The notes beneath the pieces were generated by a model, which had not been told where the DNA came from, did no database searches, and was given only the letters and a program-made list of their open reading frames with translations. This document shows, piece by piece, positions 10,167 through 57,074 of a stretch of 64,000 nucleotides of DNA. Source of the DNA: an uncultured Candidatus Saccharibacteria bacterium (GTDB taxonomy: Bacteria; Patescibacteriota; Minisyncoccia; Phycocordibacterales; EsbW-18); NCBI GenBank assembly GCA_964520295.1, contig CAZFMQ010000001.1, positions 7,048 to 71,047 of the forward strand, in the 5' to 3' direction. The translations under genes were made by a program, and so were the position numbers. Each line of letters begins with the position of its first letter. The stretch's first letter is position 1.

Positions 10167-10604
10167 ATGAAAGTGTATCTTAAAAACTATCGTCAATCAC
10201 CACGAAAAGTTCGCCTCGTTGCGGACATGATTCGTGGTAAGGCAGTGCCACAAGCGCTGACATTGCTCCGTGCAACACCAAAGCGTGCAACGGGCCCGAT
10301 TGAAAAAGCACTTAAGTCAGCAATGGCAAATGCAAAACAGCACGGTGTTGCCGACGTTGAAGCACTCGTTATTTCAGAGATCCGCGTTGATAAGGGCATC
10401 ACGATGCAACGTTATTTGCCACGCGCACAAGGTCGTGCAACTGCATACGACAAACACTCAAGCAACATTATTTTGGTGCTTGGTGAGGCGCAGAAAAAAG
10501 GCAAAAAGGGTGCATCAGCATCAAAAGCGCCCATTGCAAAAACAGTCGCAAAAAAGGTAGCAAAGAAAGCACCAGCAAAGAAATCTGCTAAAGAATCTTC
10601 ATAA
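10167..10604 (+). CDS. rplV: 50S ribosomal protein L22 with Lys-rich C-terminal extension
   Basis: SPRKVRLVADMIRGK…ALTLL…KALKSAMANAK…ISEIRVDKG. Confidence 0.9.
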   Translation: MKVYLKNYRQSPRKVRLVADMIRGKAVPQALTLLRATPKRATGPIEKALKSAMANAKQHGVADVEALVISEIRVDKGITMQRYLPRAQGRATAYDKHSSNIILVLGEAQKKGKKGASASKAPIAKTVAKKVAKKAPAKKSAKESS

Positions 10605-12785: not shown

Positions 12786-13325
12786 ATGATTACGGTACAA
12801 GAAAAACAGAAAAAAGCATTTGGTGAATTGAAAGAGCAACTCAACATTGCCAACGTTATGGCACTTCCTAAAATTGAGAAGGTGATTGTGTCAGTGGGTG
12901 TCGGTTCAGTGAAGGACAAGCACAGAATTGAAGTGATTCAAGATCGTCTTGAAAAAATTACGGGCCAAAAGTCAGTGAGCCGTGTTGCAAAACAATCTAT
13001 CGCGTCATTCAAACTTCGTGAAGGTCAGACCATCGGCTACCAAACAACGCTTCGTGGTCAGCGCATGTACGATTTTTTGGATCGTTTGTTCAACATTGCA
13101 CTCGCACGTACACGCGACTTCCGTGGTATTGATAGAAAATCAGTTGACCCCATGGGCAATCTCTCCATTGGTATTCGTGAGCACTCTATTTTCCCAGAAA
13201 CAGCAGATGAAGAAGCACGCGATGTATTTGGTTTCGCCATCACAATTGTAACGACTGCAAAGAATAAAAAAGATGCAGAGGCATATCTTGAGTACATTGG
13301 TGTGCCGTTCAAAAAGGCAAGCTAA
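12786..13325 (+). CDS. rplE: 50S ribosomal protein L5
   Basis: DFRGIDRKSVDPMGNLSIGIREHSIFPE. Confidence 0.95.
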   Translation: MITVQEKQKKAFGELKEQLNIANVMALPKIEKVIVSVGVGSVKDKHRIEVIQDRLEKITGQKSVSRVAKQSIASFKLREGQTIGYQTTLRGQRMYDFLDRLFNIALARTRDFRGIDRKSVDPMGNLSIGIREHSIFPETADEEARDVFGFAITIVTTAKNKKDAEAYLEYIGVPFKKAS

Positions 13326-13337
13326 ACATGTAATAAA

Positions 13338-13378
13338 GAGCCCGAATCCCGCCGTGTCGGGATTCGGGCTCTTTTGTT
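13338..13378 (+). terminator. Rho-independent terminator after rplE; its T-tract overlaps a TTGACA -35-like box
   Basis: AGAGCCCGAATCCCGCCGTGTCGGGATTCGGGCTCTTTTGTTGACA. Confidence 0.5.
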
Positions 13379-13468
13379 GACAGGGACATGTGCCGCATGT
13401 ACTCTGCCCGCAGAACAGTGTTCATTTATAGTGCTACACACACGGGCAATACAGCCCAAGGGAGAAAT

Positions 13469-14020
13469 ATGGCTATCAAAAGTCCCACGCTTTCGGACAG
13501 GCAGATGCAGAAGTTCATCAAAAAGATCGGCGGGAAGGATGTTATCATCGGCATCCTCAATGGCTCGTTGCAGTGCAGAGTTGAAACGGTGGAAACGCAG
13601 ATGCGTGGTTGTATTACCCGATACGTTCACGTAGATCGCACTAGAACACCGCGACAGGTCCTCAAGGCGACGGGGCGGAAGCAGTACGTTGAGAAGAGCG
13701 CTCTTGCTACGATGCCGCGAGGTGAGGGGCAATGCGTTGAGATGATTTTCTTCAAGCTCGGCCACTTCATCTCCGATGATGACCTCGCAAAAGAGTACTA
13801 TCTCCGTGACTTGTCACCTGATCCGTACGCTCAGGCGGCCATCAACGCAGCAGACCCCGCCTTCGCTTACTTCTATCCCAACTGCACACACTGGATAGGC
13901 GTTGCTGGTCGATGGTGCTTCGCAACTTTTTACGAGAGCGTCATGGCCAAGCGAGGAGTGAACATTGGCCACGACAGTGCTGGTTGGAGTGGCAACTGGT
14001 GGTTCGGTGGTCGCCGCTGA
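13469..14020 (+). CDS. Hypothetical 183-aa protein inserted into the spc r-protein operon
   Basis: Reads MAIKSPTLSDRQMQKFIKKIGGKDVIIGILNG…NCTHWIGVAGRWCFATFYESV…GHDSAGWSGNWWFGGRR. SD AGGGAGAAAT upstream. Bracketed by terminators. Visibly higher G+C than the flanking r-protein genes. No family recognised. Confidence 0.45.
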   Translation: MAIKSPTLSDRQMQKFIKKIGGKDVIIGILNGSLQCRVETVETQMRGCITRYVHVDRTRTPRQVLKATGRKQYVEKSALATMPRGEGQCVEMIFFKLGHFISDDDLAKEYYLRDLSPDPYAQAAINAADPAFAYFYPNCTHWIGVAGRWCFATFYESVMAKRGVNIGHDSAGWSGNWWFGGRR

Positions 14021-41523: not shown

Positions 41524-43209
41524 GTGAATACAAGCAAGCAAGTTCTCATAGAGGCGGTACAGGCAGTGTGCGTAGAGCTCGGCTATCCCGAGGTGTCGTT
41601 TGTGATTGAGCGACCTGCCGATATGCAACATGGCGATTGGGCGTGCAACGTGGCACTGCTCCTTGCAAAGCATGTTGGTAAAAAGCCACGAGACATTGCC
41701 GAGACAATTGCAGGGGCATTGCGTGCTCGTTCGCTTCCACACATCGCGTCTATTGAAATCGCGGGCGCAGGTTTCATCAATGTGCGTTGCACACCTGCAT
41801 ATTTCAAAGAAGCACTCGCACGCACGCTCGCCAATACCACAGACATGACGAACCCTGCATTCGCGGGAAAAACAGTGATGGTGGAATACACACAACCAAA
41901 TCCATTCAAACCATTTCACATCGGACACTTGATGAGCAATACCATCGGCGAGACGATTGCGCGTGCGTATGCTGATGCGGGTGCAACAGTTATACGTGCA
42001 AACTATCAAGGTGATGTTGGTTTGCACGTTGCAAAAGCACTGTGGGGCATGATGCAAAAAAATGTAGATCCATCAGATATTGCAGGTATCGGTACGGCGT
42101 ACGCATATGGGCATGAGCAGTATGAGACCAATGAAACTGCGAAAGCAGAAATCATTGCACTGAACAAAAAAGTGTACGCGCGCGACGAAAGCATTATGGA
42201 TACGTACACCGCAGGGCGCACCGAGACGCTACAGGCATTTGAAAAAATTTACGCACTGCTTGGCACCACCTTTGACGAATACTTTTTTGAAAGCGAGGTG
42301 TGGGAGCAGGGTATGACACTCGTGCACGAGGGAGTGGAGAAGGGCATTTTTGAAAAGAGTGATGGCGCCATTGTGTTTCCGGGGGAGAAATATGGATTGC
42401 ACACACGTGTCTTCATTACACGCGAGGGTATTCCAACGTATGAAGCAAAAGAATTAGGGTTGTGTTTGGAAAAAACACAACGTCGCACCTTTGATGTTTC
42501 AGTGACCATCACCGCTGTGGAGCAAGAGCAGTACTTCAATGTGGTGTTCAAAGCATTTGAAGTGTTGCGTCCAGAGTTTGTAGGGAAGTTTCTACACGCG
42601 CACCACGGCATGATGGTGTTGCCATCAGGGAAAATGGGTTCGCGCAAAGGCAATGTCATCACCGGTGAATCACTTATTGATGACATGATTGCGCGTGCAA
42701 AAGAAAAAGTATCGGAGCGCGGCGTGTCTGATGCCGAGCAGATTGCACAGGATGTCGCTGTCGGTGCCATTAAGTACATGGTGCTCAAACAAGGTTTGGG
42801 TAAAAACATCACGTTTGATATTGAGAAGTCACTTTCATTTGAAGGAGACTCAGGACCATATCTGCAGTACACGTACACACGCGCCAATGCGGTATTGGAA
42901 AAAGCGCGTGACAACGGTATTGTACCTGCGCTCAATGAACAAACAGAAACGACTGATGTAGTGCGTCTCTGCGAGCGTTTTGCCGAAGTAGTGCGTGGTG
43001 CGCTTGAAAAACAGTACGCACCGAATGATCTCGTGCACTACCTCATTGCAGTGGCGTCGGCATTCAATAGTTGGTACGCACAAGAAAAAATCGTAGACAC
43101 CGACAATATGGATGTCTCTGCACACCGCACGGCGGTTACACAGGCGGTGGCATCCATCCTCTCGCACGGCCTGTCTCTGCTTGGCATCCCAACACCATCA
43201 AGAATGTAA
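41524..43209 (+). CDS. argS: Arginine--tRNA ligase
   Basis: HIGH-class I (PFHIGHLMSN); DALR anticodon-binding C-terminus. Confidence 0.85.
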   Translation: MNTSKQVLIEAVQAVCVELGYPEVSFVIERPADMQHGDWACNVALLLAKHVGKKPRDIAETIAGALRARSLPHIASIEIAGAGFINVRCTPAYFKEALARTLANTTDMTNPAFAGKTVMVEYTQPNPFKPFHIGHLMSNTIGETIARAYADAGATVIRANYQGDVGLHVAKALWGMMQKNVDPSDIAGIGTAYAYGHEQYETNETAKAEIIALNKKVYARDESIMDTYTAGRTETLQAFEKIYALLGTTFDEYFFESEVWEQGMTLVHEGVEKGIFEKSDGAIVFPGEKYGLHTRVFITREGIPTYEAKELGLCLEKTQRRTFDVSVTITAVEQEQYFNVVFKAFEVLRPEFVGKFLHAHHGMMVLPSGKMGSRKGNVITGESLIDDMIARAKEKVSERGVSDAEQIAQDVAVGAIKYMVLKQGLGKNITFDIEKSLSFEGDSGPYLQYTYTRANAVLEKARDNGIVPALNEQTETTDVVRLCERFAEVVRGALEKQYAPNDLVHYLIAVASAFNSWYAQEKIVDTDNMDVSAHRTAVTQAVASILSHGLSLLGIPTPSRM

Positions 43210-43255
43210 TATCCACACAGAAAGCGCCCGCGTATGCTGTATACTGCTGATATCT

Positions 43256-43675
43256 ATGGAGATGGACGCAACACCACGCAGAATGACAGAGGCGCCTTCA
43301 CGACGCGGGCGCGGCATCAAAAAAGTATTCTTTTTCCTCGTATTATGCGCACTTCTTGTCGCAGGTATCTGGTACTGGCTTTCATTGCCCGCAACTGGTT
43401 CATCTGAAGCAACTGCACGTCAAACAGAAAGTGCAGTAGAGCGTGTGTCTAAGGTGATGGTGTTACCACAGGACGAACAACCTGCAATCGGCACAATTAT
43501 TGATCCGTATAAATTCCAAGGAGGGGTATTTTTTGACGTAGTACAAATGGGGGATCTTGTGCTCATGTATCCCGAGCGCGGTATGCTCATTGTGTACAGT
43601 GCCGCACATAAAAAAATTGTAGGTGTTGCACCATTTGTCATGAATACACCGCCAGGCATCTCGGTTACCGAGTAA
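43256..43675 (+). CDS. Hypothetical membrane-anchored protein
   Basis: TM VFFFLVLCALLVAGIWYWL; short extracytoplasmic domain; ends 3 nt before the next gene. Confidence 0.35.
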   Translation: MEMDATPRRMTEAPSRRGRGIKKVFFFLVLCALLVAGIWYWLSLPATGSSEATARQTESAVERVSKVMVLPQDEQPAIGTIIDPYKFQGGVFFDVVQMGDLVLMYPERGMLIVYSAAHKKIVGVAPFVMNTPPGISVTE

Positions 43676-43677
43676 TC

Positions 43678-44916
43678 TTGCTTCTCAACAGGGTATGTAG
43701 CGAGTTTGCATACGTATTTTACAATAGAGTTACTGTGATCCCGCTGTCGTTATATTATTTGAAGATAGCATCTCTATCTGTTGCCATTGTGCTCGTGGCG
43801 ATAGCAATTTCTCCATTCATCATTCACAGTCAGGAGGGAGCAGAATCAGCAGAAGATTTTGTAGAAGAAGTGTCAGAAGAAATTGTTGAGGATGAAGTAC
43901 AGGAGGTACCAGCAGAACCAGAATCAGAGCCAGTTCCGGAAGAGCCCGAAGAAGAGCACACAGAGGAAGCCACCGATACAGAAGAGGTGGTTATTACTGA
44001 TGTCGGCAACGAAGCAACTACGACAGATGGTACAGAAGTGCTACACATTCCTTTTCCACAGGAGGAAGCAACCACAACTGCTTCAAGTAGTACTGAAACA
44101 TCAGAGAGCGCAACAAGCACCGCCTCCTCCACCGCATCAGACGTTGCAACAAGCACCGCATCTTCCACCGAATCAGACGTTGCGACGAGCACCGCGTCTT
44201 CATCAGAAACATTTTCAGAAGATCCATTTGCAACGTCAGTGGAATTGACGCCATTGACGGAAGCAGAAATAGCAACACCTGAAATACAACAAGACCTTGC
44301 ACAACTTGAAATATTTACAACGACCACCGACGCACTGCCAACAGATGATGCCACCACCACTGCGTCTACCACAGGGGATGAGTATCTAGAGATTGTATTG
44401 GAAGAATTGCCGCTTGAAGAGGAGATAGTGGAAGAAGAATATGTTTTGGCGCCACCATCACCAGAACCTCCACCACTGTATGAATCGCCATGGCAACGAT
44501 ATCTCAATAAGGTATTTGCGCTTGATGATGAGGCACGGCATACATGCACGTTTGAAAGTGATGTAAATCTTACTGAAGGTGGCACACAAGACGTAACGCT
44601 ATTGTTATCTAATCGAAACGGCTCTATGGGTGAGCTAGAAGTAGGGAATACACCTAATGGTGTGAGTGTGTTATTCAATGGTGAAGATAGTTATGTACAA
44701 TTTTGGTCAGCGGGACCAGAGACGCGATTGAGTATAGAAGTAAAACGTACGCTGTGGGCACAAGAGGGAATGTTCAATGTCCCTGTATTTTATACGAAAG
44801 GTTCATCTACCACTGTATGTCAGCTTATTATTATCAATGGTGTGTATCCGCAATCAGAGAGCGCCACGCAAGAGGTTCTTATTACCGATAGTGTCTCTGA
44901 AACGAAAGGAGAGTAG
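43678..44916 (+). CDS. Secreted/anchored surface protein: N-terminal TM, long acidic S/T-rich low-complexity stalk, C-terminal ~130-aa beta-rich domain
   Basis: TM IASLSVAIVLVAIAISPFII; EE/PE-rich; ATSTASSTASDV-type repeats; folded C-terminal domain. Confidence 0.45.
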   Translation: MLLNRVCSEFAYVFYNRVTVIPLSLYYLKIASLSVAIVLVAIAISPFIIHSQEGAESAEDFVEEVSEEIVEDEVQEVPAEPESEPVPEEPEEEHTEEATDTEEVVITDVGNEATTTDGTEVLHIPFPQEEATTTASSSTETSESATSTASSTASDVATSTASSTESDVATSTASSSETFSEDPFATSVELTPLTEAEIATPEIQQDLAQLEIFTTTTDALPTDDATTTASTTGDEYLEIVLEELPLEEEIVEEEYVLAPPSPEPPPLYESPWQRYLNKVFALDDEARHTCTFESDVNLTEGGTQDVTLLLSNRNGSMGELEVGNTPNGVSVLFNGEDSYVQFWSAGPETRLSIEVKRTLWAQEGMFNVPVFYTKGSSTTVCQLIIINGVYPQSESATQEVLITDSVSETKGE

Positions 44917-44922
44917 TACGAT

Positions 44923-47900
44923 ATGCAGTATAAGCGCATCATACAAAATAGTATGTTTATTGTGTACAGTGCGGTACTGGTATTTTTTGCGCTACCTGCA
45001 ATGGCCGCAACGTTTACGATGCAGACGGGATATTACGTAGGTGATGGTACAGATAATCGCGTTATCTCAGGACTTGGCATAACACCGAATGTGGTGTTTG
45101 TGAAAGATGATACCAATAATGGAGACGACGGTATTATTATGCGCACCAGTGCAATGGCCGGTGATTCATCTGCTAAACTGGCCGAAGCAGAAGCCAATGC
45201 CGCCGATCTCGTACAAGCACTTGCGTCAGGACAATTCACCATCGGTGCTGAGGCAGACATCAATGCAGTAGATCAAATGTATTACTGGACTGCGTTCGGT
45301 GGCAGTGATTGTACATCCACGGGTACGTTGTGTGTGGGTTCATATTTGGGCAGTGGTGATCTTTCACGCAATGTGAACGTGGGGTTTGCGCCCGATTTGG
45401 TGATTGTCAAACGAGCGGGCGCAACAGCAGGTGTGTGGACTTCATCGGCAATGCCCGCCAATACTACCGCTTTTTTCCATGGTGCCGCATCAAGTGCCGG
45501 TATCATCACGGCATTGGGTGCTACTCATTTTACAGTCAGTGCAAACGCAGCTGTTAATACTTTGGACAGTACATATTACTTTGTTGCATTCAAACAGGTT
45601 AGTGGCGCTATGGATGTGGGCACGTATACAGGGAACGGTAACGACAACAGAAATATAACATCATCTGATGACGCAGGGCTGACTTTTCAGCCGGACTTTG
45701 TGTGGGTCAAATCTTCAGCTGCTACTATAGCAGTACTTTCACAAACTGAACATTATGGTGATCGTACATACACAGCAGGAGACATATCATCTTTGTCAAA
45801 CAGCATACAAGAGTTACGTTCTGCTGGCGGTTTTCAGGTAGGAAATGAAACAACATATAACTCAGTTAATACAACAGGGAATACCTACTATTACGCGGCA
45901 TTCAACGGTGCGGTTGCAAAAAATCCTGCAAGCGAAACCTATACCATGAAATCCGGCTCATATACAGGTACCGGTTCGGGATTTTCTATTGGAGGTATTC
46001 CCTTTACACCCGACTTGGTCATTATTAAACACAATAATCAAGCAACTGATCAATACGCTGTTTTTCGTACAAGTCAGATGGGGGGCGATAACACATTGCA
46101 GTTTGCTACAGCAGCTTCTTTTACGGGTGGCATTACCTCATTGAATGCTAGTGGTTTCTCCGTTGGGACGGATGCTCGTGTTAATACTTCTGGTGATACA
46201 TACTACTGGACTGCATTTGGCAATGCCACGCGTCCTGACAAATCCGGTGGTGCAAATAATTTTGCAGTTGGTGCGTATATAGGCACGGGTGTAGATGGTT
46301 CTTCCGTAACGCGTCTCCCCATCGGTCCTGATTTATTGGTGGTAAAGCGCAGTGATAGTACAAACAATGGTGTATGGAGAACCAGTTCAGTGGCGGGTGA
46401 TTCATCTTTGTTTTTTCACAATGCAGCATCTGCGGCAAACTATATTCAGGCACTGACAAGTGATGGTTTTGAGCGCGGAAATAATGGATCAGTCAATACT
46501 GGTAGCGGTCGTTACAGTTATTTTGCATTTGCAGAGGGTGATGATTTTGTGCAGAACTCGTATACAGGTAATGGCAGTACGCAAAATATTGCTGCATACA
46601 ATTGGCAACCAGATATGGTATGGACGAAGAAAGGGACGGGAGGTACTGCGCGTGGTGGGTTATTACGTACGTCTGTAGTGAGTGGTGATGCATCATGGCC
46701 ATTTCTCAATCAAGCAACCCTTTCTAATGGTTTTACTAACCTACTCTCTGACGGTTTTTCATTAGGTTCATCGGTGGATGCCAATGAAAGCGGGTACACC
46801 TACTATTACGCGGTATGGGATGGTAAGAAGTATGGTCAATCAGGATTTCGTTTTTTTGAAAATACAGATAGCACAAGCGTGGGTACACCTCTTGCAAATG
46901 CAAATACGTCTGCAACACTGGGTGCTGTCGGTGATACATTTCGTCTTCGTATGTTGATGCACCTGACGGGAGGTAATTTATTACAAGGTAATGGTGGGTT
47001 CATATTGCAATACGCACAACCAAGCCCTTTTGATACTACTTGTAGTGGTCTGATGACATGGAATGACGTAGATACAGACACGGCAATTGCATTTTATGAT
47101 AACCCTAGTGCCACGGATGGTGCCGCACTGACAGCAACGAGTACTGATCCAACAAATGGTCTCTACACCATCGTCAATCAGAATTATCTAGAATCTCAAG
47201 GAAGTGGTTTTACCAATGGTATTGCTACCATCGCAGATATCCAAGATGGTAAATGGGATTTTTCGCTCGTGGACTACAGTGCTTCCGCCAAAACCACATA
47301 TTGTTTTCGTATGCGTCGCGCCGACACAGTATTATTTGAAGATTACACGGTACCGGCGGTGCGTATCACCACAGGAGCAACAGGAAGCCATGTGCCAACT
47401 GTCTCTAATGTATCTATTGATGAAGGGGCTCCGTCCATTACCTTGACTGAAGGTACGACCAAAAATGTGCAATGTACCGCAACAGCTACCGATACTGATG
47501 GGTATAGTGATATTACTGCTGTGACGGCGCACTTACACCAATCGTCAATCGATGTGAGTGCGCCCGCCGATGATAATCATCACTACATTGTTTCGGGCGA
47601 TTCGCAATGTGTACCGTCAAGTGGGTCAGGCAATTCCGAGGAATACACATGTACATTTGCGGTACAGTATTTTGCCAATCCAACGGATGCAGGTTCACCG
47701 AACGTGTTGGATGAGTGGGTGTGTTCTGTGTTTGCGTATGACGGTACATCCACCAGTACGGTGGCGACAGATACCACAGAGATAGATTCATTGATTGCGC
47801 TATCTGTTGATCCAGAAAGTATTGATTATAGTGAGGGTGGCCCACTGCTTCCTGAAGATATCTATGTACTTGTAAATAAAATGGATGTAGTCAACACAGG

Positions 47901-48183
47901 TAATCGGGACATTGACCCGCAGATTTCAGGCACACTTATGACAGGTGATGTACATAGTGGCACAATCGCGGTAGGGGAGCAGAAGTATGAAAATTTTGCT
48001 TTCGACTATGCCACTGAGGGCATCACACTGACGACCACGCCCACAACGATGGATTTGGCACTTCCACAGCGCACGGGTGGGGTAGTGTCAGATATACTCC
48101 ATTGGGGTATTCAAATTCCTTTGGGGACAATACCCGACACATACACAGGTGTAAATACACTGACTGCAGTGCCGGCGATATAA
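44923..48183 (+). CDS. Giant secreted protein (1086 aa): signal peptide, six tandem ~105-aa repeats, CARDB-like Ig domain, C-terminal LPQRT…WGI module
   Basis: Signal peptide VLVFFALPAMAA. Repeats share Y.G.G…F.PD.V.VK…W(R)TS.M.GD.S…GF.VG…VN…YY(Y/W).AF. C-terminus reads …VNKMDVVNTGNRDIDPQISGT…DLALPQRTGGVVSDILHWGIQIPLG. Confidence 0.6.
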   Translation: MQYKRIIQNSMFIVYSAVLVFFALPAMAATFTMQTGYYVGDGTDNRVISGLGITPNVVFVKDDTNNGDDGIIMRTSAMAGDSSAKLAEAEANAADLVQALASGQFTIGAEADINAVDQMYYWTAFGGSDCTSTGTLCVGSYLGSGDLSRNVNVGFAPDLVIVKRAGATAGVWTSSAMPANTTAFFHGAASSAGIITALGATHFTVSANAAVNTLDSTYYFVAFKQVSGAMDVGTYTGNGNDNRNITSSDDAGLTFQPDFVWVKSSAATIAVLSQTEHYGDRTYTAGDISSLSNSIQELRSAGGFQVGNETTYNSVNTTGNTYYYAAFNGAVAKNPASETYTMKSGSYTGTGSGFSIGGIPFTPDLVIIKHNNQATDQYAVFRTSQMGGDNTLQFATAASFTGGITSLNASGFSVGTDARVNTSGDTYYWTAFGNATRPDKSGGANNFAVGAYIGTGVDGSSVTRLPIGPDLLVVKRSDSTNNGVWRTSSVAGDSSLFFHNAASAANYIQALTSDGFERGNNGSVNTGSGRYSYFAFAEGDDFVQNSYTGNGSTQNIAAYNWQPDMVWTKKGTGGTARGGLLRTSVVSGDASWPFLNQATLSNGFTNLLSDGFSLGSSVDANESGYTYYYAVWDGKKYGQSGFRFFENTDSTSVGTPLANANTSATLGAVGDTFRLRMLMHLTGGNLLQGNGGFILQYAQPSPFDTTCSGLMTWNDVDTDTAIAFYDNPSATDGAALTATSTDPTNGLYTIVNQNYLESQGSGFTNGIATIADIQDGKWDFSLVDYSASAKTTYCFRMRRADTVLFEDYTVPAVRITTGATGSHVPTVSNVSIDEGAPSITLTEGTTKNVQCTATATDTDGYSDITAVTAHLHQSSIDVSAPADDNHHYIVSGDSQCVPSSGSGNSEEYTCTFAVQYFANPTDAGSPNVLDEWVCSVFAYDGTSTSTVATDTTEIDSLIALSVDPESIDYSEGGPLLPEDIYVLVNKMDVVNTGNRDIDPQISGTLMTGDVHSGTIAVGEQKYENFAFDYATEGITLTTTPTTMDLALPQRTGGVVSDILHWGIQIPLGTIPDTYTGVNTLTAVPAI

Positions 48184-48331
48184 TAACGCTACATAGCACG
48201 AGCAGTATTGTTGCCCTCTCATTATCCACAGCAGTACAACACGAGAAAACGGCATTTGCTATACTTTGCGTATGTCCAGTCCATGCTGATAGCGCGCTGG
48301 CCGTACTCTTATTCTGTTTCATAATCACCCC

Positions 48332-49216
48332 ATGAAAAAGACAGGGCTCATACTCGCTTCTTTGTTGCTCTCTACAGCATTTATTGTGTTTGCGGATGAT
48401 GTATCCACACAAGTGACTGTAGGTAACGCAACGCCATCAGCAACCAACCCCACGTTCAATGGGGGAGGTGCCATTACGCTTACTGAAAACACCACAACGA
48501 CGGTGTACGCTACCACCACAGTCACTGATACAAACGGGTGCGAAACAATTGTAGGAGTAACCATGGATTTTTATCGATCAGGTGTTGGCACGACATCATG
48601 TGACACCATTGGTGAAGCAGATGAAAACTATTGTTACCCACGTGTATCTTGTTCGGTCGCGGGCGGTTCATGTACTGGCCCTTCTGACACCAGTGCCGAT
48701 TATGTATGTTCTGTAGATTTGGAATACTATGCCGACCCTACTGACAGTGGTACATATGCTGCAGAAATCTGGAACGCAACAGTATATGCGGGTGATGGTA
48801 TTGCAACGACAACAGGTAACACGGGTACTGCTGAAGTAAACACACTTTTGGCGCTTGATGTAACAAGTTCAATCAACTACGGTACGCTCTCACCAAACAC
48901 TGATACGGGTGCTGATAATGCAACAACCACAGTGACAAATACCGGTAACGGTGCAATAGACCCAGAAGTTTCAGGTACCGACATGACTTCTGTTGGTGAC
49001 ACTATTACGGTTGGCTATCAAGAGTACGCAACCACCTCATTCACATATGGTGCGGGTACAGATCTTACTGGATCGGGTGTGCGTGCAGAAATTGATTTGC
49101 CACAACGAACTACGAGTGTGGTACAGGCACTGCTCTTGTGGGGTATCGGCATTCCCGCAGGTCAACCATCGGGTACATACACAGGTACCAACACATTTAC
49201 TGCCATTGCCGACTAG
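48332..49216 (+). CDS. Secreted 294-aa paralog of the C-terminal third of the giant protein
   Basis: Signal peptide MKKTGLILASLLLSTAFIVFADD. Aligns with 44923-48183 residues ~790-1086, including TVTNTGNGAIDPEVSGT and IDLPQRTTSVVQALLLWGIGIPAG. Confidence 0.6.
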   Translation: MKKTGLILASLLLSTAFIVFADDVSTQVTVGNATPSATNPTFNGGGAITLTENTTTTVYATTTVTDTNGCETIVGVTMDFYRSGVGTTSCDTIGEADENYCYPRVSCSVAGGSCTGPSDTSADYVCSVDLEYYADPTDSGTYAAEIWNATVYAGDGIATTTGNTGTAEVNTLLALDVTSSINYGTLSPNTDTGADNATTTVTNTGNGAIDPEVSGTDMTSVGDTITVGYQEYATTSFTYGAGTDLTGSGVRAEIDLPQRTTSVVQALLLWGIGIPAGQPSGTYTGTNTFTAIAD

Positions 49217-49241
49217 CATTACCTAAATATTTGCGACTGTC

Positions 49242-50186
49242 ATGAGCACTACACTTGTTAAATACAGCACAAAAATACTTCTCATGTGTGTGCTTGTGTG
49301 CGCGCCATTATTGACGCGTGCGGGATTTGGCGTCTCTCCAGGTCTTATTGAAGAATTACACCTTGTGCCAGGTACCCACATGGAAAAGACATTGTATCTC
49401 GTGCAGGGTGATCCAAAGCTAGATTTGCCTGCAACTGTTGCAGTTGAATCAGCAGATATTGCAAACTGGCTGACATTTCCTGATGGTACCTCGTTTATCA
49501 TTCCTGCTGGTGTACAGCAATATCCGTTACGCGTTGCATTTGATGTGCCGGTAGATGCACCTGTAGGTGACTATACTGCGTACATTCGTGTTACGACGCT
49601 TCCAAAACAAGATCCTGAAAATCAAATCACCATTGCACTCGGTGGACGCATTGACGTGCACCTTGTTGTTGGTACCGATATTGTAGTGGATTGGGATGTG
49701 CCACATATTGACGTGCTTGATGTAAAAGAGGGGGATGATCCAGAGGTGGTGCTGACAATTGATAACCGTGGTAATACGCAGGCAGGACCAGAGCGTGTAT
49801 CGTTTGATCTGTATAACAAGTATGGTGATGTGCGTTTGGGGTATGCAGAGACAGCGCAGGTATCCCGCGTACCATCGTTTACACGCAAGGCGCTTAAAGT
49901 AACATTTCCAATTGATATTCGTTTAGCGCCAGGGGAGTACTGGGGTCATGTGCGTGTGTATGGACGCGATGGTGTACTTGTACGCGAACTGAAAACACCA
50001 TTTGATGTAACGGTAAAGACCTTTGAAGAGAAGTATGGCGACCTCATTGTTGTCGGCGGTGCACTTCTTATCCTCTTGCTATGCATTGCGCTGGTTCGTT
50101 CAATTATTAAACACCGCCGCGCGCACAAGCAGTTGATGCATCATCAGCAGAACAACGTGCCACCACCGCCAATGCGCGTTTCCTAA
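49242..50186 (+). CDS. Signal-peptide protein with two predicted beta-sandwich domains, a C-terminal TM anchor and a basic tail. Topology resembles CscA/DUF916.
   Basis: Signal peptide ending LLTRAGFGVSPG. C-terminal TM LIVVGGALLILLLCIALV then RSIIKHRRAHK. Confidence 0.5.
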   Translation: MSTTLVKYSTKILLMCVLVCAPLLTRAGFGVSPGLIEELHLVPGTHMEKTLYLVQGDPKLDLPATVAVESADIANWLTFPDGTSFIIPAGVQQYPLRVAFDVPVDAPVGDYTAYIRVTTLPKQDPENQITIALGGRIDVHLVVGTDIVVDWDVPHIDVLDVKEGDDPEVVLTIDNRGNTQAGPERVSFDLYNKYGDVRLGYAETAQVSRVPSFTRKALKVTFPIDIRLAPGEYWGHVRVYGRDGVLVRELKTPFDVTVKTFEEKYGDLIVVGGALLILLLCIALVRSIIKHRRAHKQLMHHQQNNVPPPPMRVS

Positions 50187-50188
50187 GT

Positions 50189-51112
50189 ATGTTGTGGCGA
50201 CGTCTCCTCCTGTCGCTTATATGTATCGGCAGCGCAGCGCTCTGTAGCGCTACGGCGTTTGCCGACGATACCACCGTGACGGTGGAAGTCGTGATGCGTC
50301 AATGTTCAGATGGGATAGACAACGACGGCGATGCACTTATTGATTATCCTAATGATCCAGATTGTGATTCGCCAAATGATGACAGTGAAGGTGATGGAGT
50401 ACCACCCACTTCTGATGACGATGATGGTGGCGGTCGTGCATCATCATCGTATCGTCGTGGCACGCTGATACAATCGGCTATTCTATTTCGTGGAATAGCG
50501 CAACCGAACACATGGGTATTTGCATTTGAAGGTGATGACATGATTGGTATGGTGCAGGCTACAGTAGACGGCACATTCACGATGGGGCCAATAGCATTTT
50601 CTCCTGCACAAACGATATTTACGTTGTACGCATTTGACCCCGTGACAGGCACAACCACCACACATGCATTTCCGCTCACCATTCCTCGCTACTCAGTGGT
50701 AACCATAAGTGGCATTGCGCTGGGTATCGCACCTTTGGCGACAACAACCACAGCGACACTCCCGCCAATTTTATTTTTAGATGTTGTTGCCACTGACACA
50801 GCACACACAGAGTATCCAATACAATCACCCACAGAGAGTGTGCGTCCTGTACTCCCCACAGTTGTGACGCCCGATGCCGTGTATAGAGCATCATTGTTCG
50901 TAACGTCCGTGCGCGCACTTCTACAGACGCTCTATGATGGGTTCTTTGCGTGCCCAACACCGTACGACGTACGCGTCTTTTTAGCATCAGTGCAATTTTT
51001 GCAACCGTTGACACCGTTTATCCCATGCACCGTGTTGTGGTTTTCTGACCCGTTCTCGGCGCGTGTATTTGATGCTATAGTCGGTGTGTATGACAGCATC
51101 AGAAGGCGTTGA
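50189..51112 (+). CDS. Secreted protein with a MopE-like Cys/Asp metal-binding motif
   Basis: Signal peptide; CSDGIDNDGDALIDYPNDPDCDSPNDD (the C.DG.DND.D..ID…D.DC motif). Confidence 0.5.
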   Translation: MLWRRLLLSLICIGSAALCSATAFADDTTVTVEVVMRQCSDGIDNDGDALIDYPNDPDCDSPNDDSEGDGVPPTSDDDDGGGRASSSYRRGTLIQSAILFRGIAQPNTWVFAFEGDDMIGMVQATVDGTFTMGPIAFSPAQTIFTLYAFDPVTGTTTTHAFPLTIPRYSVVTISGIALGIAPLATTTTATLPPILFLDVVATDTAHTEYPIQSPTESVRPVLPTVVTPDAVYRASLFVTSVRALLQTLYDGFFACPTPYDVRVFLASVQFLQPLTPFIPCTVLWFSDPFSARVFDAIVGVYDSIRRR

Positions 51113-54100
51113 AAAAAGTGAACATGCGCTACGAGAGGAAGAGATTCTAGCGCAATGGAAAGAGCGAAATATCTTTGCAAAGACGTTGAAACAACCTGCA
51201 CCGCAGGGCGAGTTTACCTTTTATGAAGGCCCGCCAACAGCAAACGGACGTCCGGGTATTCACCACCTGATTTCGCGTATCTTCAAAGACGTTATTCCGC
51301 GCTACAAAACAATGCGTGGTTTCCACGTGCGTCGTAAGGCGGGGTGGGACACGCACGGTTTGCCTGTGGAGATTGCAGTAGAAAAATCACTCGGCCTCAC
51401 CTCAAAGAAACAAATTGAAGAGTACGGTATTGCGAAGTTCAATGAGCAGTGTAAAGAGGACGTGTGGAAATACATCAATGAGTGGCAAGAGTTTACGGAG
51501 CGCATCGGCTACTGGGTTGATCTCAATGATGCCTACATCACGTACTATCCGTCATATATAGAATCAGTATGGAACATTGTTGCGCACGTAGAGAAGCGCG
51601 GACTGCTGTATAAGGACTACAAAGTAGTCCCGTGGTGTCCGCGTTGTGGTACCGCACTCTCATCACACGAGCTTGCACAGGGATATCAGGATGTAAAAGA
51701 TTTATCTGTGTATGCGAAGTTTCGCGTGGTCGGGGAGGAGAATACTTTTTTGCTTGCATGGACAACGACACCATGGACACTTCCTGGTAACGTCGCGCTT
51801 GCCGTTGGTGCAGATATCGCGTATGTGAAAATCGCACAAGGCGGAGAGTTTCTTTGGTTGGCGCAAGAGCGCCTGTCGGTTGTGGAAGGGGAATATGAAA
51901 TTGTTGCAGGGGCGCGTGGTGCAGAGCTGGTAGGCATGTCGTATGAGCCTCTGTATCCGTTCTTGGGTGCACAGATTGCAGGAGCAGAAAAAGAGAAAAT
52001 GGAGAACGCATACAAGGTGTATCCGGCAGATTTTGTAACTACGGCAGATGGTACGGGTATCGTACACACAGCGGTGATGTACGGACAAGATGACTTTGAG
52101 CTCGGCAACCGCGTTGGATTGCCGAAGCACCACCTCGTTGGGGAAGATGGGCGCTTCATGTCAGGCACCGGTCTATTTGAAGGACGATTTGTGCGTGATG
52201 AAGATGTCGCAGTGGATGTGATAAAAGATTTGGCGGGTCGCGGACTGCTGTTTGCGAAAGAAAAATACGAACACACCTACCCGCACTGTTGGCGCTGTAA
52301 AACACCGCTTATCTACTACGCGCGCAATTCATGGTACATCCGTATGTCAGCACTCCGCGATGACCTCGTGCGTGAGAACAAAAAAATTAATTGGGTGCCA
52401 AGTCACATTCGCGACGGGCGTTTCGGTGAATGGCTTCGTGAAGTAAAGGATTGGGCAATATCGCGCGACCGCTACTGGGGTACGCCATTGCCTGCGTGGG
52501 AGTGTCAGTGTGGACACCGAGAAGTTATCGGTTCTATCGCGCACCTCAAAAAACTCACGCGCTCACGGGGCAATACATTCACGTTCGTGCGCCACGGAGA
52601 AGCAGAAAATAATGTACAAAACATTTCAAGCTCTGATGCCGATGCACCATTTCATCTTACGGAACGTGGCCGTGCACGCATCGCGCATGTTGCAAAAACA
52701 CTGACACGCAAGAAAGTATCTGCAGTGTACGCATCGCCATTTGTACGCACACAGGAGACAGCGCAGATTATTGCCGATGCGCTCGGAAAGAAGCATGACG
52801 ATATTATCACCGACAAACGATTGGGTGATTATGATTTCGGTGATTTTAGTGGTGGATCATATCATGATTTTCTTGCGTATGAAGGTGAGCACTTCACCAC
52901 GTATCGCGATCGTGCGCCGAATGGGGAAAGTTATGCAGATGCGCGTGCACGTTTTGCAGAGTTTCTCTATGACATAGATAGCAAACACGAACACGAGCAC
53001 ATCGTTGTCGTTTCGCACGGTATTTCATTGGAAGTCATCCCAGCAATTTTGGAAGGTATGGATGATACGCACGCAAAGCGTTTTATAGACAACATCAGCA
53101 CAAATCCGGGTGATACATTGTCATTTTCATTTGTACCAGTGCCACACAACGATGCACACGAGATTGATTTGCATAAACCATATATTGATGCAGTTGATTT
53201 GGTGTGCCCTGCATGTAGCAAAACGATGGCACGCACACCTGAGGTGATGGATGTGTGGTTTGATTCGGGTGCCATGCCGTTTGCGCAAGATCACTATCCA
53301 TTTGAAGGTGGTACGTATTTTTGGAATGCACAAAAACTTGCGTATCCTGCGCAGTATATTTCAGAAGCGATTGATCAAACACGAGGATGGTTTTACACAC
53401 TGCACGCAGTCGGTGCATTGATGGGGAAGGGTCGCGCGTATGAAAACGTGATTTGCTTAGGACACATTTTAGACGGTCAGGGTAAAAAAATGAGTAAGAG
53501 TTTGGGCAACATCATCAACCCATGGGAGGTTATGGCGAAGTATGGTGTTGATGTGGTGCGTTTTTGGATGTTCTCCATCAACCAGCCGGGTGATACAAAA
53601 AGTTTTGATGAGAAGACGGTTGATGAGGTACAAAAAAAGGTATTCAACATCGTGCGTAATGTCATGGCGTTTTATGCACTCTACGATGATGGTGCACCAT
53701 TGCCGAATGCGCGCAACAGCAAACATATTCTTGATACATGGATTTTGGCGCGCACCGATGCATTGGTGACGACGGTAACGCGCGAATTGGATGCATACCA
53801 CGCATTTGAATCTACCCGCGCAATTAAAGAGTTTGTTACCGATGTATCTACGTGGTACGTGCGCCGTTCTCGTGATCGTTTTCGCTCAGGTGGGGAGGAT
53901 GCGTTATATGCTCGTGCAACAACCCAGTATGTGTTGCAGGTGTTGGCAAAACTTCTTGCGCCGTTCACACCGTTTTTTGCAGAAGAGATATACCAAGCAA
54001 CGGGAGGCACTGCCGAAAGCGTGCACTTAGAAGCGTGGCCGGTTGCAGGCACAGTGTCGGGTGCGGAGACAGTATTGAAAGAAATGGAAGAGGCGCGCGA

Positions 54101-54545
54101 TGTGGTATCAAAAGCACTTGAAGCGCGCATGGGTGCGGGTATCAAAGTGCGCCAACCGCTCGCAACACTGACACTCTCACCACTGCACAAAGCATTGGCA
54201 CACAATGCTGAGTTGCTCGCGGTGATTGCAGATGAAGTAAACGTCAAAGCGGTAGTGGTTGCATCAGAAGAGCAAGGATTGGATGTGTCGCTGGATACAA
54301 CAATAACGCCTGCACTGGAGCAAGAGGGTGCTGTGCGTGAAATAATTCGTGCTATTCAAGATTTCAGAAAGACATCAGGATTACAGGCAACCGATACACC
54401 TGCATTGCACATCACCACATCAGAAACACAGAGCGCATTGATTGCAGAACATAAAGAAACACTACAGAAAGCAACGAATGTATCCGACATTATGGTTGCA
54501 ACAGGGGATACAGGTACAGAGCCGTTTGTGTTTTCATTGCGCTAA
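51090..54545 (+). CDS. ileS: Isoleucine--tRNA ligase carrying an inserted histidine-phosphatase (PGAM-like) domain
   Basis: HIGH (PGIHHL) and KMSKS present. About 195 aa inserted between ECQCGHREVIGSIAHLKKL and HKPYIDAVDLVCPACS, with FVRHGEAENN (RHGxxxxN), SPFVRTQETA and VVVSHGIS. Confidence 0.85.
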   Translation: MTASEGVEKSEHALREEEILAQWKERNIFAKTLKQPAPQGEFTFYEGPPTANGRPGIHHLISRIFKDVIPRYKTMRGFHVRRKAGWDTHGLPVEIAVEKSLGLTSKKQIEEYGIAKFNEQCKEDVWKYINEWQEFTERIGYWVDLNDAYITYYPSYIESVWNIVAHVEKRGLLYKDYKVVPWCPRCGTALSSHELAQGYQDVKDLSVYAKFRVVGEENTFLLAWTTTPWTLPGNVALAVGADIAYVKIAQGGEFLWLAQERLSVVEGEYEIVAGARGAELVGMSYEPLYPFLGAQIAGAEKEKMENAYKVYPADFVTTADGTGIVHTAVMYGQDDFELGNRVGLPKHHLVGEDGRFMSGTGLFEGRFVRDEDVAVDVIKDLAGRGLLFAKEKYEHTYPHCWRCKTPLIYYARNSWYIRMSALRDDLVRENKKINWVPSHIRDGRFGEWLREVKDWAISRDRYWGTPLPAWECQCGHREVIGSIAHLKKLTRSRGNTFTFVRHGEAENNVQNISSSDADAPFHLTERGRARIAHVAKTLTRKKVSAVYASPFVRTQETAQIIADALGKKHDDIITDKRLGDYDFGDFSGGSYHDFLAYEGEHFTTYRDRAPNGESYADARARFAEFLYDIDSKHEHEHIVVVSHGISLEVIPAILEGMDDTHAKRFIDNISTNPGDTLSFSFVPVPHNDAHEIDLHKPYIDAVDLVCPACSKTMARTPEVMDVWFDSGAMPFAQDHYPFEGGTYFWNAQKLAYPAQYISEAIDQTRGWFYTLHAVGALMGKGRAYENVICLGHILDGQGKKMSKSLGNIINPWEVMAKYGVDVVRFWMFSINQPGDTKSFDEKTVDEVQKKVFNIVRNVMAFYALYDDGAPLPNARNSKHILDTWILARTDALVTTVTRELDAYHAFESTRAIKEFVTDVSTWYVRRSRDRFRSGGEDALYARATTQYVLQVLAKLLAPFTPFFAEEIYQATGGTAESVHLEAWPVAGTVSGAETVLKEMEEARDVVSKALEARMGAGIKVRQPLATLTLSPLHKALAHNAELLAVIADEVNVKAVVVASEEQGLDVSLDTTITPALEQEGAVREIIRAIQDFRKTSGLQATDTPALHITTSETQSALIAEHKETLQKATNVSDIMVATGDTGTEPFVFSLR

Positions 54546-54547
54546 GT

Positions 54548-55141
54548 ATGTATTCAAAGACGCACACGCACGCTATTGTTTTGGGACATTATGATGCGGG
54601 TGAAGCAAGTCGCGTGTACCGATTATTTACGCGCGACCTCGGCACAGTGTTTGCGCGAGCGCAATCATCGCGCCTGCTTGGTTCAAAGCATCGGTATGGT
54701 TTGCAAACACTATCGGTCGCAGAAGTGTCGCTTGTGCGCTCGCGCGGGGGATGGCGACTGACGAATGTGGTGCCGCAAGTATCACTCCATGCGTTGCATA
54801 AAGACGCGCGTGCGAAGCACGCGCTGACGTGTCGTATACTCGCACTTGTACGGCGCTTTGTTATAGGTGAAGAAGAAGGAGGAGAGTTGTTCGGCATACT
54901 CTGGAATGGTCTTCATTTTTTTGAGAAGCACGCACTATCATCGGAACACGCACGGTGGTTTGAAGCACTGCTCGTACTACGCATACTCAATACGTTGGGA
55001 TACGTGCAGCGTAATGCTGTGTACACACCATTCGTAGAAAGTCCATCTCTATTTTCGCAAGAACATATAGAGCAATTTGCACCAGCATATACAACGGCAG
55101 TGCAAGAAATAAACCGCGCAATTATCGCATCGCACTTGTAA
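54548..55141 (+). CDS. recO: RecO-like recombination mediator (short form, no zinc finger)
   Basis: N-terminal OB-fold pattern AIVLGHYDAGEASRVYRLFTRDLG…; helical C-terminal part. Confidence 0.45.
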   Translation: MYSKTHTHAIVLGHYDAGEASRVYRLFTRDLGTVFARAQSSRLLGSKHRYGLQTLSVAEVSLVRSRGGWRLTNVVPQVSLHALHKDARAKHALTCRILALVRRFVIGEEEGGELFGILWNGLHFFEKHALSSEHARWFEALLVLRILNTLGYVQRNAVYTPFVESPSLFSQEHIEQFAPAYTTAVQEINRAIIASHL

Positions 55142-56113: not shown

Positions 56114-56950
56114 CTATTTTTCACTCAACCTGTATCGTACAGCACGTTTTTCAATAAATCCTTCAGTGCGTAGTGCAGAAAGTGCAGCACGCACATCAAC
56201 AGGTGTTCTCTTTGTATGTTTCACTATCTGTTTTTCAGTGGTTGTGTGTTGTGCAAGTAGTTTCAGAATGGCACCGCGCAGTTCGCGCTTTGACCCTTTG
56301 AATGTGGATTGTCTCACGTAATGTTTGCTTCGGACATTTGCATTACCTACAGTTTTTTTCAAGTGCGCACCGTAGTCCATAAGCGCCCAATACCACATAC
56401 GAGGATTACGCATGTATAGCATGTCGGCAATTTTGTTTTCTAGTACCGCATCTGACACGTGCTTCCTCCGTGGAAAAAAATGATGCAGAAATACAGTGCG
56501 TATGTTTGTTTCAATAAGCATCATCGGTTCGTTCCATGCAAATGCACACACGGCTCCTGCGGTATACGGACCAATACCAGGCAGTGCAACAAGCGCACCA
56601 TACGTTCGGGGCAGGGTGCCGCGATGTTCTTGCATTACAATTTGTGCTAAACGATGCAGTGCAAGCGCACGACGGTTATAGCCCAGCCCTTGCCAGAGTG
56701 TAAGGACATCGGCAGTTGTGGCTCGTGCAAGTTTTGCAATCGTGGGAAAGCGTTTTAAAAATTGTGCATACTTCGGCAGAACACGATCAACCTGCGTTTG
56801 TTGCAGCATCATTTCCGATACAAGAATATGGTACGGATTATCGGTGTGTCGCCACGGGAGCGTATGGCGACCGTGCTTCTTGTAAAAATCCAATACAACC
56901 TTTTGGAATTGGCGCGTATCCATACACATAGCGTATCGCACAAATAGCAA
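56114..56950 (-). CDS. mutY: MutY-like HhH-GPD adenine DNA glycosylase, short form lacking Fe-S cysteines and the C-terminal NUDIX-like domain
   Basis: VLDFYKKHGRHTLPWR…PYHILVSEMMLQQTQVDRVLP (MutY has VLDWYDKYGRKTLPWQ…WLSEVMLQQTQV); LPGIGPYTAGA HhH-GPD loop; no Cys cluster. Confidence 0.65.
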   Translation of the reverse strand: MLFVRYAMCMDTRQFQKVVLDFYKKHGRHTLPWRHTDNPYHILVSEMMLQQTQVDRVLPKYAQFLKRFPTIAKLARATTADVLTLWQGLGYNRRALALHRLAQIVMQEHRGTLPRTYGALVALPGIGPYTAGAVCAFAWNEPMMLIETNIRTVFLHHFFPRRKHVSDAVLENKIADMLYMRNPRMWYWALMDYGAHLKKTVGNANVRSKHYVRQSTFKGSKRELRGAILKLLAQHTTTEKQIVKHTKRTPVDVRAALSALRTEGFIEKRAVRYRLSEK

Positions 56951-56986: not shown

Positions 56987-57074
56987 GGAGACGTGTCAGA
57001 GTGGTCGAATGTACCTCCTTGCTAAGGAGGCAGGGCGCAAGCCCTCGTGGGTTCGAATCCCACCGTCTCCGCCA
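56987..57074 (+). tRNA. tRNA-Ser (anticodon GCU), class II long variable arm, encoded CCA
   Basis: Acceptor stem GGAGACG/CGTCTCC. Anticodon stem-loop CCTCC-TTGCTAA-GGAGG. Variable arm CAGGGCGCAAGCCCTCG. T-arm GTGGGTTCGAATCCCAC. Confidence 0.9.

Follow-up and report, generated by a model that had tools for sequence, protein, structure and literature searches.

A 64,000-nt stretch of a contig from an uncultured bacterium (CAZFMQ010000001.1, positions 7,048 to 71,047; hereafter the window) contains an isoleucyl-tRNA synthetase gene, ileS, whose single open reading frame (ORF) also encodes a second enzyme. Profile searches, alignments and structure prediction establish, at the level of sequence and model, that a catalytically complete and structurally autonomous histidine phosphatase is nested in a type-2 isoleucyl-tRNA synthetase (IleRS2). 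The explanation that we favor as a whole, with a probability of roughly 0.6, is that the housekeeping IleRS2 of a Campbellbacteria-like member of the Parcubacteria (Paceibacteria, Patescibacteria) would have been turned, as in its sampled relatives, into an enzyme with three active sites, namely the synthetic site, the CP1 editing site and the nested phosphatase, and that the substrate of the phosphatase would be tied to aminoacylation and not to unrelated metabolism.

A phosphatase nested in a type-2 isoleucyl-tRNA synthetase

The initial annotation, made from the letters of the window, had placed a PGAM-like histidine phosphatase domain in frame inside the synthetase, and this placement is borne out by profile searches and by comparison with solved structures. 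Pfam His_Phos_1 (PF00300), the family it had predicted, matches residues 500–672 with E = 7e-35 and 120.9 bits against a gathering threshold of 21.7, and the segment 52566–53150 searched alone matches with E = 2e-36. When the protein is aligned with the best solved homolog, the IleRS2 structure 8c8w (843 bits, E = 4e-252), residues 15–490 correspond to chain positions 11–476 and residues 692–1117 to positions 484–909, from which it follows that about 200 residues stand in place of a loop of about 7 residues between the zinc-knuckle hairpins. By the domain nomenclature of PMC11685878 and bioRxiv 10.64898/2026.02.03.703510, we infer that the host site belongs to the final connective-peptide module in the Rossmann fold. 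The motifs quoted in the initial annotation (WECQCGHREV, FVRHGEAENN, SPFVRTQETA, VVVSHG and HKPYIDAVDLVCPAC) all lie where they had been reported, within one ORF of 1153 amino acids that is uninterrupted by frameshifts. The NCBI gene model (P0273, on a 181-kb NCBI contig) describes the same protein as the window ORF and places the start at an ATG at 51090, two codons downstream of the GTG, for a length of 1151 amino acids.

The catalytic residues expected of PF00300 are all present, consisting of the histidine of the RHG motif (His504), two arginines (Arg503 and Arg555), an acid (Asp582) and the second histidine (His645; Table 1). Across 361 aligned copies of the domain, a count that includes the extra copies at other IleRS sites described below, Arg503 and His504 are missing only from the eight copies that are truncated at the N terminus, Asn510 is nearly invariant and the general-acid position is acidic in 359 (Glu in 347, Asp in 12). 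The domain would thus act as an autonomous phosphohydrolase through a phosphohistidine intermediate at His504, with Arg503, Asn510, Arg555 and His645 holding the phosphoryl group and Asp582 serving as the acid. Could the fold instead now serve as a structural element or as an appendage that binds tRNA or phosphate, that is, as a pseudoenzyme? Aminoacyl-tRNA synthetase (aaRS) families often gain RNA-binding appendages, and the domain is modeled with confidence together with its host. However, pseudoenzymes normally lose catalytic residues, and here the nucleophile, both arginines, the acid and the second histidine are kept in essentially every copy, even in paralogs that are 22–26% identical. 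We therefore view a non-catalytic role as highly improbable.

The initial annotation had also suggested modeling to see whether the insert folds as an independent domain, and in the predicted structures it does. Modeled alone with AlphaFold2, the insert has a mean predicted local distance difference test (pLDDT) score of 94.8 and a predicted template modeling (pTM) score of 0.91. The full-length model (pLDDT 91.1, pTM 0.85) has high confidence at both junctions, and residues 749–751 are its sole internal segment of low confidence. In Foldseek searches, the insert model has the alpha/beta fold of the family, matching PspA, PhoE and GpgP with a probability of 1.00 and template modeling (TM) scores of 0.70–0.76. 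The first and last elements of the modeled domain are β-strands (residues 498–503 and 678–682). Since these strands enter and leave via one short host loop, the domain termini must be close, and the domain should therefore fit in the loop without disturbing the host. The motifs at the junctions, GN.Y/F and LP.N, are conserved among relatives. The GC content of the insert (0.44–0.46) equals that of the 3′ half of the gene, the 5′ half being at 0.50–0.53; the insert therefore gives no sign of being a foreign patch. Judged from the ratio of nonsynonymous to synonymous substitution (dN/dS) in pairs of the same allele lineage, the insert (0.09–0.14) is under purifying selection that is somewhat weaker than that on the host core (0.03–0.11).

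The host itself looks like a functional IleRS in which the synthetase motifs are intact. The whole protein scores 862.4 bits against the ileS profile TIGR00392 (cut-off 621.4), IleRS1 structures match much more weakly (370 bits) than 8c8w, and the full-length model superimposes on IleRS2 structures with target-normalized TM scores of 0.75–0.85. Pfam DUF5915 is found at residues 1053–1140, giving the type-2 C-terminal organization, which does not include the C-terminal treble-clef zinc-binding domain. Structures of isolated IleRS CP1 editing domains (1wk8, 1wny) match residues 200–401, and the editing residues G323, G325, H328 and D337 are invariant in 40 relatives. All four zinc-knuckle cysteines are found in 25 of 40 relatives, and three of the four in another 4. 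The HIGH and KMSKS motifs had both been described as canonical and intact. This is correct for KMSKS (53487–53501); the first class I motif is present as GIHH, a non-canonical GXHH in place of HXGH. Among 40 diverse insert-bearing relatives, 17 have GXHH and 23 have HXG(H/N). The GXHH swap is tolerated only in IleRS2, where it confers mupirocin hyper-resistance (Brkic et al., 2023; PMC10485003). The profiles for the mupirocin-resistance enzymes MupA and MupB (NF000257 and NF000258) give 767 and 796 bits, well under their cut-off of 1900.

Table 1. Positions of ileS, its motifs, the nested phosphatase and neighboring genes (window coordinates unless a locus is named)
Feature	Position	Strand	Remarks
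ileS, type-2 isoleucyl-tRNA synthetase with nested phosphatase	51084..54545	+	Continuous ORF, 1153 aa, GTG start at 51084
Class I signature motif GIHH (GXHH, non-canonical, instead of HXGH)	51255..51266	+	Motif read from sequence
CP1 editing-domain motif WTTTPWTL	51759..51782	+	Invariant or nearly so across 40 relatives
First zinc-knuckle, Cys474-x-Cys476 (in WECQCGHREV)	52503..52511	+	Directly upstream of insert
Inserted branch-1 histidine phosphatase, residues 491–691	52554..53156	+	Pfam core residues 500–672, nt 52581–53099
RHG motif (in FVRHGEAENN): Arg503, His504 (predicted phospho-accepting nucleophile), Gly505	52590..52598	+	353/361 copies
Arg555, second phosphate-pocket arginine (SPxxR; in SPFVRTQETA)	52746..52748	+	361/361 copies
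Asp582, general-acid position	52827..52829	+	Aligns with Glu of the PhoE "RLRE" motif (1ebb, 1h2e)
His645, second active-site histidine (SHG; in VVVSHG)	53016..53018	+	360/361 copies
Second zinc-knuckle, Cys708-Pro-Ala-Cys711 (in HKPYIDAVDLVCPAC)	53205..53216	+	Downstream of insert
KMSKS loop of synthetase active site	53487..53501	+	Residues 802–806
argS, arginyl-tRNA synthetase	41524..43209	+	Pfam; conserved upstream neighbor of ileS in clade
recO-like gene	54548..55141	+	RecO_N, E = 3e-7; conserved downstream neighbor of ileS
Small membrane ORF, one hydrophobic helix, G-x-D-I/L-Y-H/R-A motif	L003 5865–6011; L006 7865–8017; L007 454–609

Recurrence of the insert among relatives

The insert is fixed across all of the relatives sampled, and these belong to several named Parcubacteria lineages. 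In a HMMER search of 1.84 billion representative sequences, the best 150 matches mostly cover the whole 249-aa query and lie at about position 460–730 of proteins of 1100–1200 amino acids. All 40 full-length representatives tested contain both tRNA-synt_1 and His_Phos_1. When the window IleRS was used as the query with its insert deleted, the best 120 clusters (65–100% identity in the best local alignment) all proved to carry PF00300, with P0273 as the top match. The domain is found in over 100 clusters defined at 50% identity. When one genome per GTDB species was scanned, tblastn confirmed 458 stretches, and the best 80 of these span both junctions; with one exception, these 80 are labeled as Patescibacteria-type or are unclassified. 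The exception (L028, JBLNCF010000015.1) is an insert-bearing locus in a metagenome-assembled genome labeled "Bacillota bacterium," all other specific labels being Patescibacteria, and the Bacillota label is probably a binning or labeling error. The nearest named relatives are Candidatus Campbellbacteria, Taylorbacteria, Paceibacterota, Minisyncoccia and the Parcubacteria group, in keeping with the affiliation to Parcubacteria that had been guessed from the sequence. The comparison with related Parcubacteria synthetases that had been proposed thus finds the insert shared.

A word-index search with the insert and its flanks returned only two matches linked to IleRS, both with a phosphatase at the same place. 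We rejected the rarity that this search suggested as an artifact of its sensitivity, given the results of the exhaustive HMMER search and of the insert-less query. The public annotation of these proteins, which number in the hundreds, is "isoleucyl-tRNA synthetase" or "class I tRNA ligase family protein." The initial annotation knew of no described IleRS with such an insert. As far as the literature is concerned this stands, since our full-text search found no description of an IleRS, or of any aaRS, with a histidine phosphatase domain; the implied rarity does not, given the hundreds of public sequences. The word phosphatase is absent from a 2026 preprint on the domain architectures of 96,219 IleRS sequences (bioRxiv 10.64898/2026.02.03.703510). 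Another paper, PMC13622651, was set aside as a lead, as a tRNA synthetase serves there only as a counter-selection marker. The architecture is thus widespread in databases, yet apparently undescribed.

Could the fusion reflect a misassembly, a chimeric contig or a pair of genes masked by a frameshift? In the first two relatives found (L001 and L002; ENA ERZ25039473 and ERZ25039472), ileS is in pieces as a result of multiple frameshifts, which would favor such an origin. However, the breaks are scattered along ileS, argS of L001 is also split into two called genes, and the insert has the same position in both. Frameshifts of this kind are typical of error-prone, uncorrected long-read assemblies. 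Moreover, the window ORF is continuous and the identical architecture is present in hundreds of independent assemblies (NCBI, JGI, ENA and Logan). This recurrence refutes an artifact, to which we give next to no weight. The initial annotation had named a chimera, a frameshift or a failed profile match as findings that would overturn the domain insertion; each was looked for, and none was found. Gene callers list the phosphatases of L001 and L002 as separate proteins, which could mislead surveys of domain architecture. We also rejected a recently mobile in-frame element, as the 120 closest relatives show no presence/absence polymorphism and the loci examined have a single copy each.

Extra copies, a divergent interior and the gene neighborhood

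When all detected domains were mapped onto the residue numbering of the window protein, 201 fell at the site occupied in the window (490/692). A second copy lies at about 716–720, just past the second zinc knuckle, in P0235, P0216, P0265, P0269 and P0223. Further copies are found at 746/747 in P0223 and P0180, at 870–879, immediately ahead of the anticodon-binding domain, in P0180 and P0253, and at 421/422 in P0145 (one copy). The 746/747 site adjoins the segment of low pLDDT in the window model (749–751). In rare relatives, therefore, the same domain family occupies at least five different loops of IleRS, with one to four copies per protein. In P0253, the main-site loop is intact and insert-less ("...ELQKKSQKELPRNDAGEVDLHRPYID") and the only phosphatase lies at 878/879; the N-terminal half of this protein is 52% identical to that of the window, and its TIGR00392 score is 947 bits. 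Among 192 proteins of at least 600 amino acids, 184 have one copy, six have two, one has three and one has four. Copies at the second site are 39–45% identical across proteins versus 22–26% to the first-site copy of their own protein. Since they resemble each other more than they resemble their own first-site copy, the extra copies are old paralogs and not recent duplicates. All but one of the extra copies keep the catalytic set. One relative, P0220 (1561 aa), has GNAT domains in CP1 (residues ~265–425) and at the 746/747 loop (~885–1074) in addition to the main-site phosphatase.

The interior of the phosphatase is among the fastest-replaced pieces of an otherwise highly conserved essential gene. 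For the 119 nearest homologs, mean identity to the window protein is 71% over residues 15–490, 67% over residues 692–880 and 49% in the C-terminal part, versus 36% in the insert. In individual pairs, the identity of host versus insert is 98% versus 48% (P0342/P0365), 95% versus 43% (P0379/P0383) and 91% versus 39% (P0360/P0379). The edges are sharp, with identity of ~100% up to "...GNKYFVMRHGEAE", 33–45% across the interior and 100% again from "...DFRELDFVPLPHN". At the DNA level, the loci L088 and L089, which derive from different samples and assemblers, are 94–95% identical over ileS and the downstream genes, with the exception of ~500 nt (ileS nt ~1515–2019) in which no similarity is detectable. 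A second pair, L090 and L091, has the same ~500-nt unalignable interior, the two contig pairs being ~92–95% identical otherwise. The discordance can also be reversed, as in L009 and L011, where the inserts are 77% identical and the hosts ~50%. This pattern resembles cassette replacement or balanced alleles of ancient origin. The sampled set yielded no donor allele for the replaced cassettes. Column entropy is highest at residues 511–526, 585–613 (the cap) and 649–676, and lowest around the catalytic strands. In the histidine phosphatase superfamily, such variable segments shape substrate specificity. Other parts of the gene vary as well. Between L090 and L091, DNA identity is ~75% in the 3′ half of ileS, 35–65% in the C-terminal block and 94% in the downstream recO; ileS is a recombination mosaic in several segments. 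We rejected a diversity-generating retroelement by reasoning, as a block of ~170 codons with ~60% amino-acid differences is unlike adenine-targeted mutagenesis of a variable repeat.

The closest free-standing His_Phos relatives are proteins of 187–204 amino acids with 38–40% identity. In all three of the contexts examined (L003, L006 and L007), the order is argS, an ORF for a single-helix membrane protein of 48–51 amino acids, and the His_Phos gene, whose start is overlapped by the small ORF in L003 and L006. In two of the three, AOX and an insert-less ileS (992–1016 aa) then follow, with ileS within 1.2–1.4 kb. Within 8 kb on either side of the insert, free-standing and nested copies never occur together at a locus. 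A neighbor-joining tree of inserted and free-standing domains is star-like and does not resolve which form is ancestral. Small hydrolase genes beside ileS vary from genome to genome. In L006, a gene for a 2H-phosphoesterase (2_5_RNA_ligase2) lies just upstream of argS, a HIT gene upstream of ileS (9599–10030) and a NUDIX gene downstream of it (13081–13614). An HAD_2 gene lies between ileS and recO in L091 (3943–4374), and L083 has a NUDIX gene (~10189–10560).

One possibility raised by these patterns is that the phosphatase is an integrated counter-measure against phosphoryl-based attacks on IleRS or tRNA-Ile, in which case it would be engaged in an arms race with the antagonist. Such attacks could come from HipA-type toxin kinases, which phosphorylate synthetases, from RelA/SpoT-homolog toxins, which add pyrophosphate to the CCA ends of tRNA, or from phosphorylated antimetabolites. 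Such a role would be consistent with divergence that is confined to the phosphatase interior in L088/L089 and L090/L091, in DNA that is ~92–95% identical elsewhere; with host protein identities of 95–98% beside insert identities of 43–48%, and the reverse case of inserts at 77% in hosts at ~50%; and with variability in the loop and cap segments (511–526, 585–613 and 649–676) of a domain whose chemistry is fixed. HIT, NUDIX and HAD genes come and go beside ileS, and some of these synthetases also harbor inserted GNAT domains; GNAT and HIT enzymes are known to detoxify aminoacyl-adenylate mimics. However, this case is entirely circumstantial, as no kinase, toxin or inhibitor was identified, and the near-universal presence of the insert in a clade where it is ancient looks more like housekeeping than defense. 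Moreover, mosaicism extends to other peripheral segments of IleRS, among them the C-terminal region, and may simply reflect pervasive recombination wherever constraint is low, and donor alleles for the replaced cassettes were not found. We regard a general shield of this kind as quite unlikely. The narrower proposal of a dedicated third catalytic site, hypervariable as the result of an arms race, that would clear a 3′-phosphate or pyrophosphate from tRNA or a toxin-placed phosphoryl mark from IleRS, is one that we judge unlikely; it would fit the fixation of the domain at five or more loops of IleRS, the linkage of the free-standing form to argS and ileS, and the unalignable interiors in contigs that otherwise share ~92–95% identity.

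In the window, the gene order differs from that of most loci. The usual order is argS, ileS with its insert and recO, with argS at most 8 kb upstream in 66 of 88 loci and recO present in 47 of 88. Here this adjacency is broken by ~8 kb (43112–51112) with six same-strand ORFs between argS and ileS. The six ORFs gave no informative Pfam match, only DUF7483/DUF7361 in a 1086-aa protein at 44923–48183. Several have Thr/Gly-rich or hydrophobic N termini, which is suggestive of secreted or surface proteins. Pfam searches of the genes neighboring ileS in the window found no functional partner. In Rfam and tRNA scans of the window, tRNA-Ser was the only match; this tRNA-Ser(GCT) gene (56987–57074) adjoins a gene for an HhH-GPD (MutY/Nth-like) glycosylase (56114–56950, minus strand), an arrangement in which we saw nothing unusual.

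Candidate roles and comparison with known systems

If the nested domain is an active phosphatase, what might it act on? The initial annotation had suggested that it could hydrolyze a phospho-intermediate or regulate the synthetase, and both ideas are speculative. We propose, at a little short of even odds, that it is coupled in some way to aminoacylation. An aminoacylation-related substrate is suggested because the same domain family is fixed at at least five IleRS loops, because its free-standing relatives directly follow argS, in two of three cases near an insert-less ileS, because the segments predicted to determine specificity turn over much faster than the host, and because the junction motifs are conserved. 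Candidate substrates would include a product of the nucleotide or pyrophosphate type, a tRNA phosphorylated at its 3′ end, or a phosphoryl group placed as a mark on either the synthetase or the tRNA.

Several observations weigh against this proposal and against the three-site enzyme as a whole. The insert falls below every curated NCBIfam subfamily threshold. Its scores are 88 versus 225 bits and 34 versus 81.7 bits for the phosphoglycerate mutase profiles NF038349 and TIGR01258, 80.4 versus 162.9 for CobC (TIGR03162), 72.5 versus 350 for PspA (NF045917), and 34 versus 74.5 for SixA (TIGR00249), to which only the N-terminal 70 residues align. Since no subfamily threshold is reached, the substrate cannot be read from homology. 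The nearest structural neighbors are ordinary metabolic phosphatases, which would fit an unrelated enzyme equally well. The Asp at the proton-donor position of the window phosphatase is the minority state for this domain. Variants with more than one copy are uncommon (8 of 192 proteins), and the free-standing gene of L007 has no ileS nearby, making the link one to argS rather than strictly to ileS. For the divergent interior, pervasive recombination wherever constraint is low is a valid null model, since other peripheral segments of IleRS are also mosaic.

A second possibility is that the domain is an ordinary housekeeping phosphatase of the PhoE/PspA type, acting on sugar phosphates, phosphoserine or nucleotides independently of IleRS, and that fusion into a constitutively expressed essential gene of genome-reduced bacteria only guarantees its expression. 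The closest folds and sequences are those of metabolic phosphatases, and the domain is predicted to fold alone. Insert-less lineages keep a free-standing relative, as expected of a generally needed enzyme, and constraint is weaker on the insert than on the host (mean identity to the window protein of 36% versus 67–71%). However, such a passenger would leave unexplained why one host has fixed the family at at least five of its loops, with up to four old paralogous copies, why the free-standing form resides in the argS-ileS neighborhood and why phosphatase interiors are unalignable at the DNA level in conspecific genomes. We consider it possible though doubtful, and continue to favor a phosphatase whose activity would be linked to aminoacylation.

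Aminoacyl-tRNA synthetases are among the best-studied enzymes, and the Parcubacteria make up a large share of bacterial diversity that is still poorly understood. In this lineage, a second predicted activity of IleRS goes unseen in current annotation, where the proteins are labeled simply as IleRS or as members of the class I tRNA ligase family. A phosphatase that acted on tRNA, on the nucleotide products of the synthetase or on phosphoryl modifications of the translation apparatus would represent a new layer of translation quality control or defense. If it is a counter-measure, an essential translation enzyme of a whole lineage would carry an integrated, swappable module. If it is instead an unrelated enzyme, the gene would still illustrate cleanly how, in nature, domains whose termini are adjacent colonize the loops of essential proteins in reduced genomes.

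How does this enzyme compare with known systems? The host resembles the IleRS2 of Priestia megaterium (8c8u, 8c8v and 8c8w) and the Thermus thermophilus enzyme (1ile) in its Rossmann/HUP fold, CP1, zinc knuckles, KMSKS loop, anticodon-binding domain and DUF5915, and its GXHH variant of the signature motif is also known from IleRS2 (PMC10485003). It differs in that the solved IleRS2 structures have ~7 residues where the window protein has a 200-residue catalytic domain, and no IleRS that has been solved or described is known to contain a phosphatase. The insert, for its part, resembles PhoE/YhfR (1ebb, 1h2e), PspA (4ij5, 4ij6), GpgP Rv2419c (4pz9) and CobC (6nru, 6e4b), with TM scores of 0.70–0.76 and 18–29% identity; the riboflavin-pathway phosphatase 9mmh is another structural match. 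The RHG...R...E/D...H constellation and a small cap are common to the insert and to PhoE, PspA, GpgP and CobC. However, these enzymes are free-standing and have known small-molecule substrates, whereas the insert has conserved junction motifs with its host and hypervariable cap segments.

Fusions that involve one or the other partner also have precedents. In the bifunctional RNase H/acid phosphatase (PRK07238, Rv2228c type), a CobC-like His_Phos_1 domain is fused to a nucleic-acid enzyme. This is an end-to-end fusion with another partner, found in actinobacteria and without nesting, and it is matched with 76 bits versus a cut-off of 326. The curated family NF040702 (ileS_w_GNAT) is a precedent for an IleRS with an extra enzymatic domain, although the guest differs. 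Against its cut-off of 1999, the window protein scores 317.9 bits and P0220 scores 241; neither is a member, and the window protein contains no GNAT domain. Our literature search found no paper on this family. More broadly, aaRSs are preferred hosts of domain insertion, and a 2026 survey names them only as hosts of editing domains (PMC13114784). The CP1 editing domain and the leucine-specific domain of LeuRS follow the same principle as the insert described here, that of a functional module placed in a loop of the Rossmann fold. To our knowledge, the known nested aaRS modules edit mis-acylated products or bind tRNA, and a phosphohydrolase is not among them. CP1 and the LeuRS domain, which are ancient and found throughout their families, target the aminoacyl ester or tRNA, whereas the nested phosphatase would bring a phosphohydrolase chemistry that has not previously been tied to aaRS inserts.

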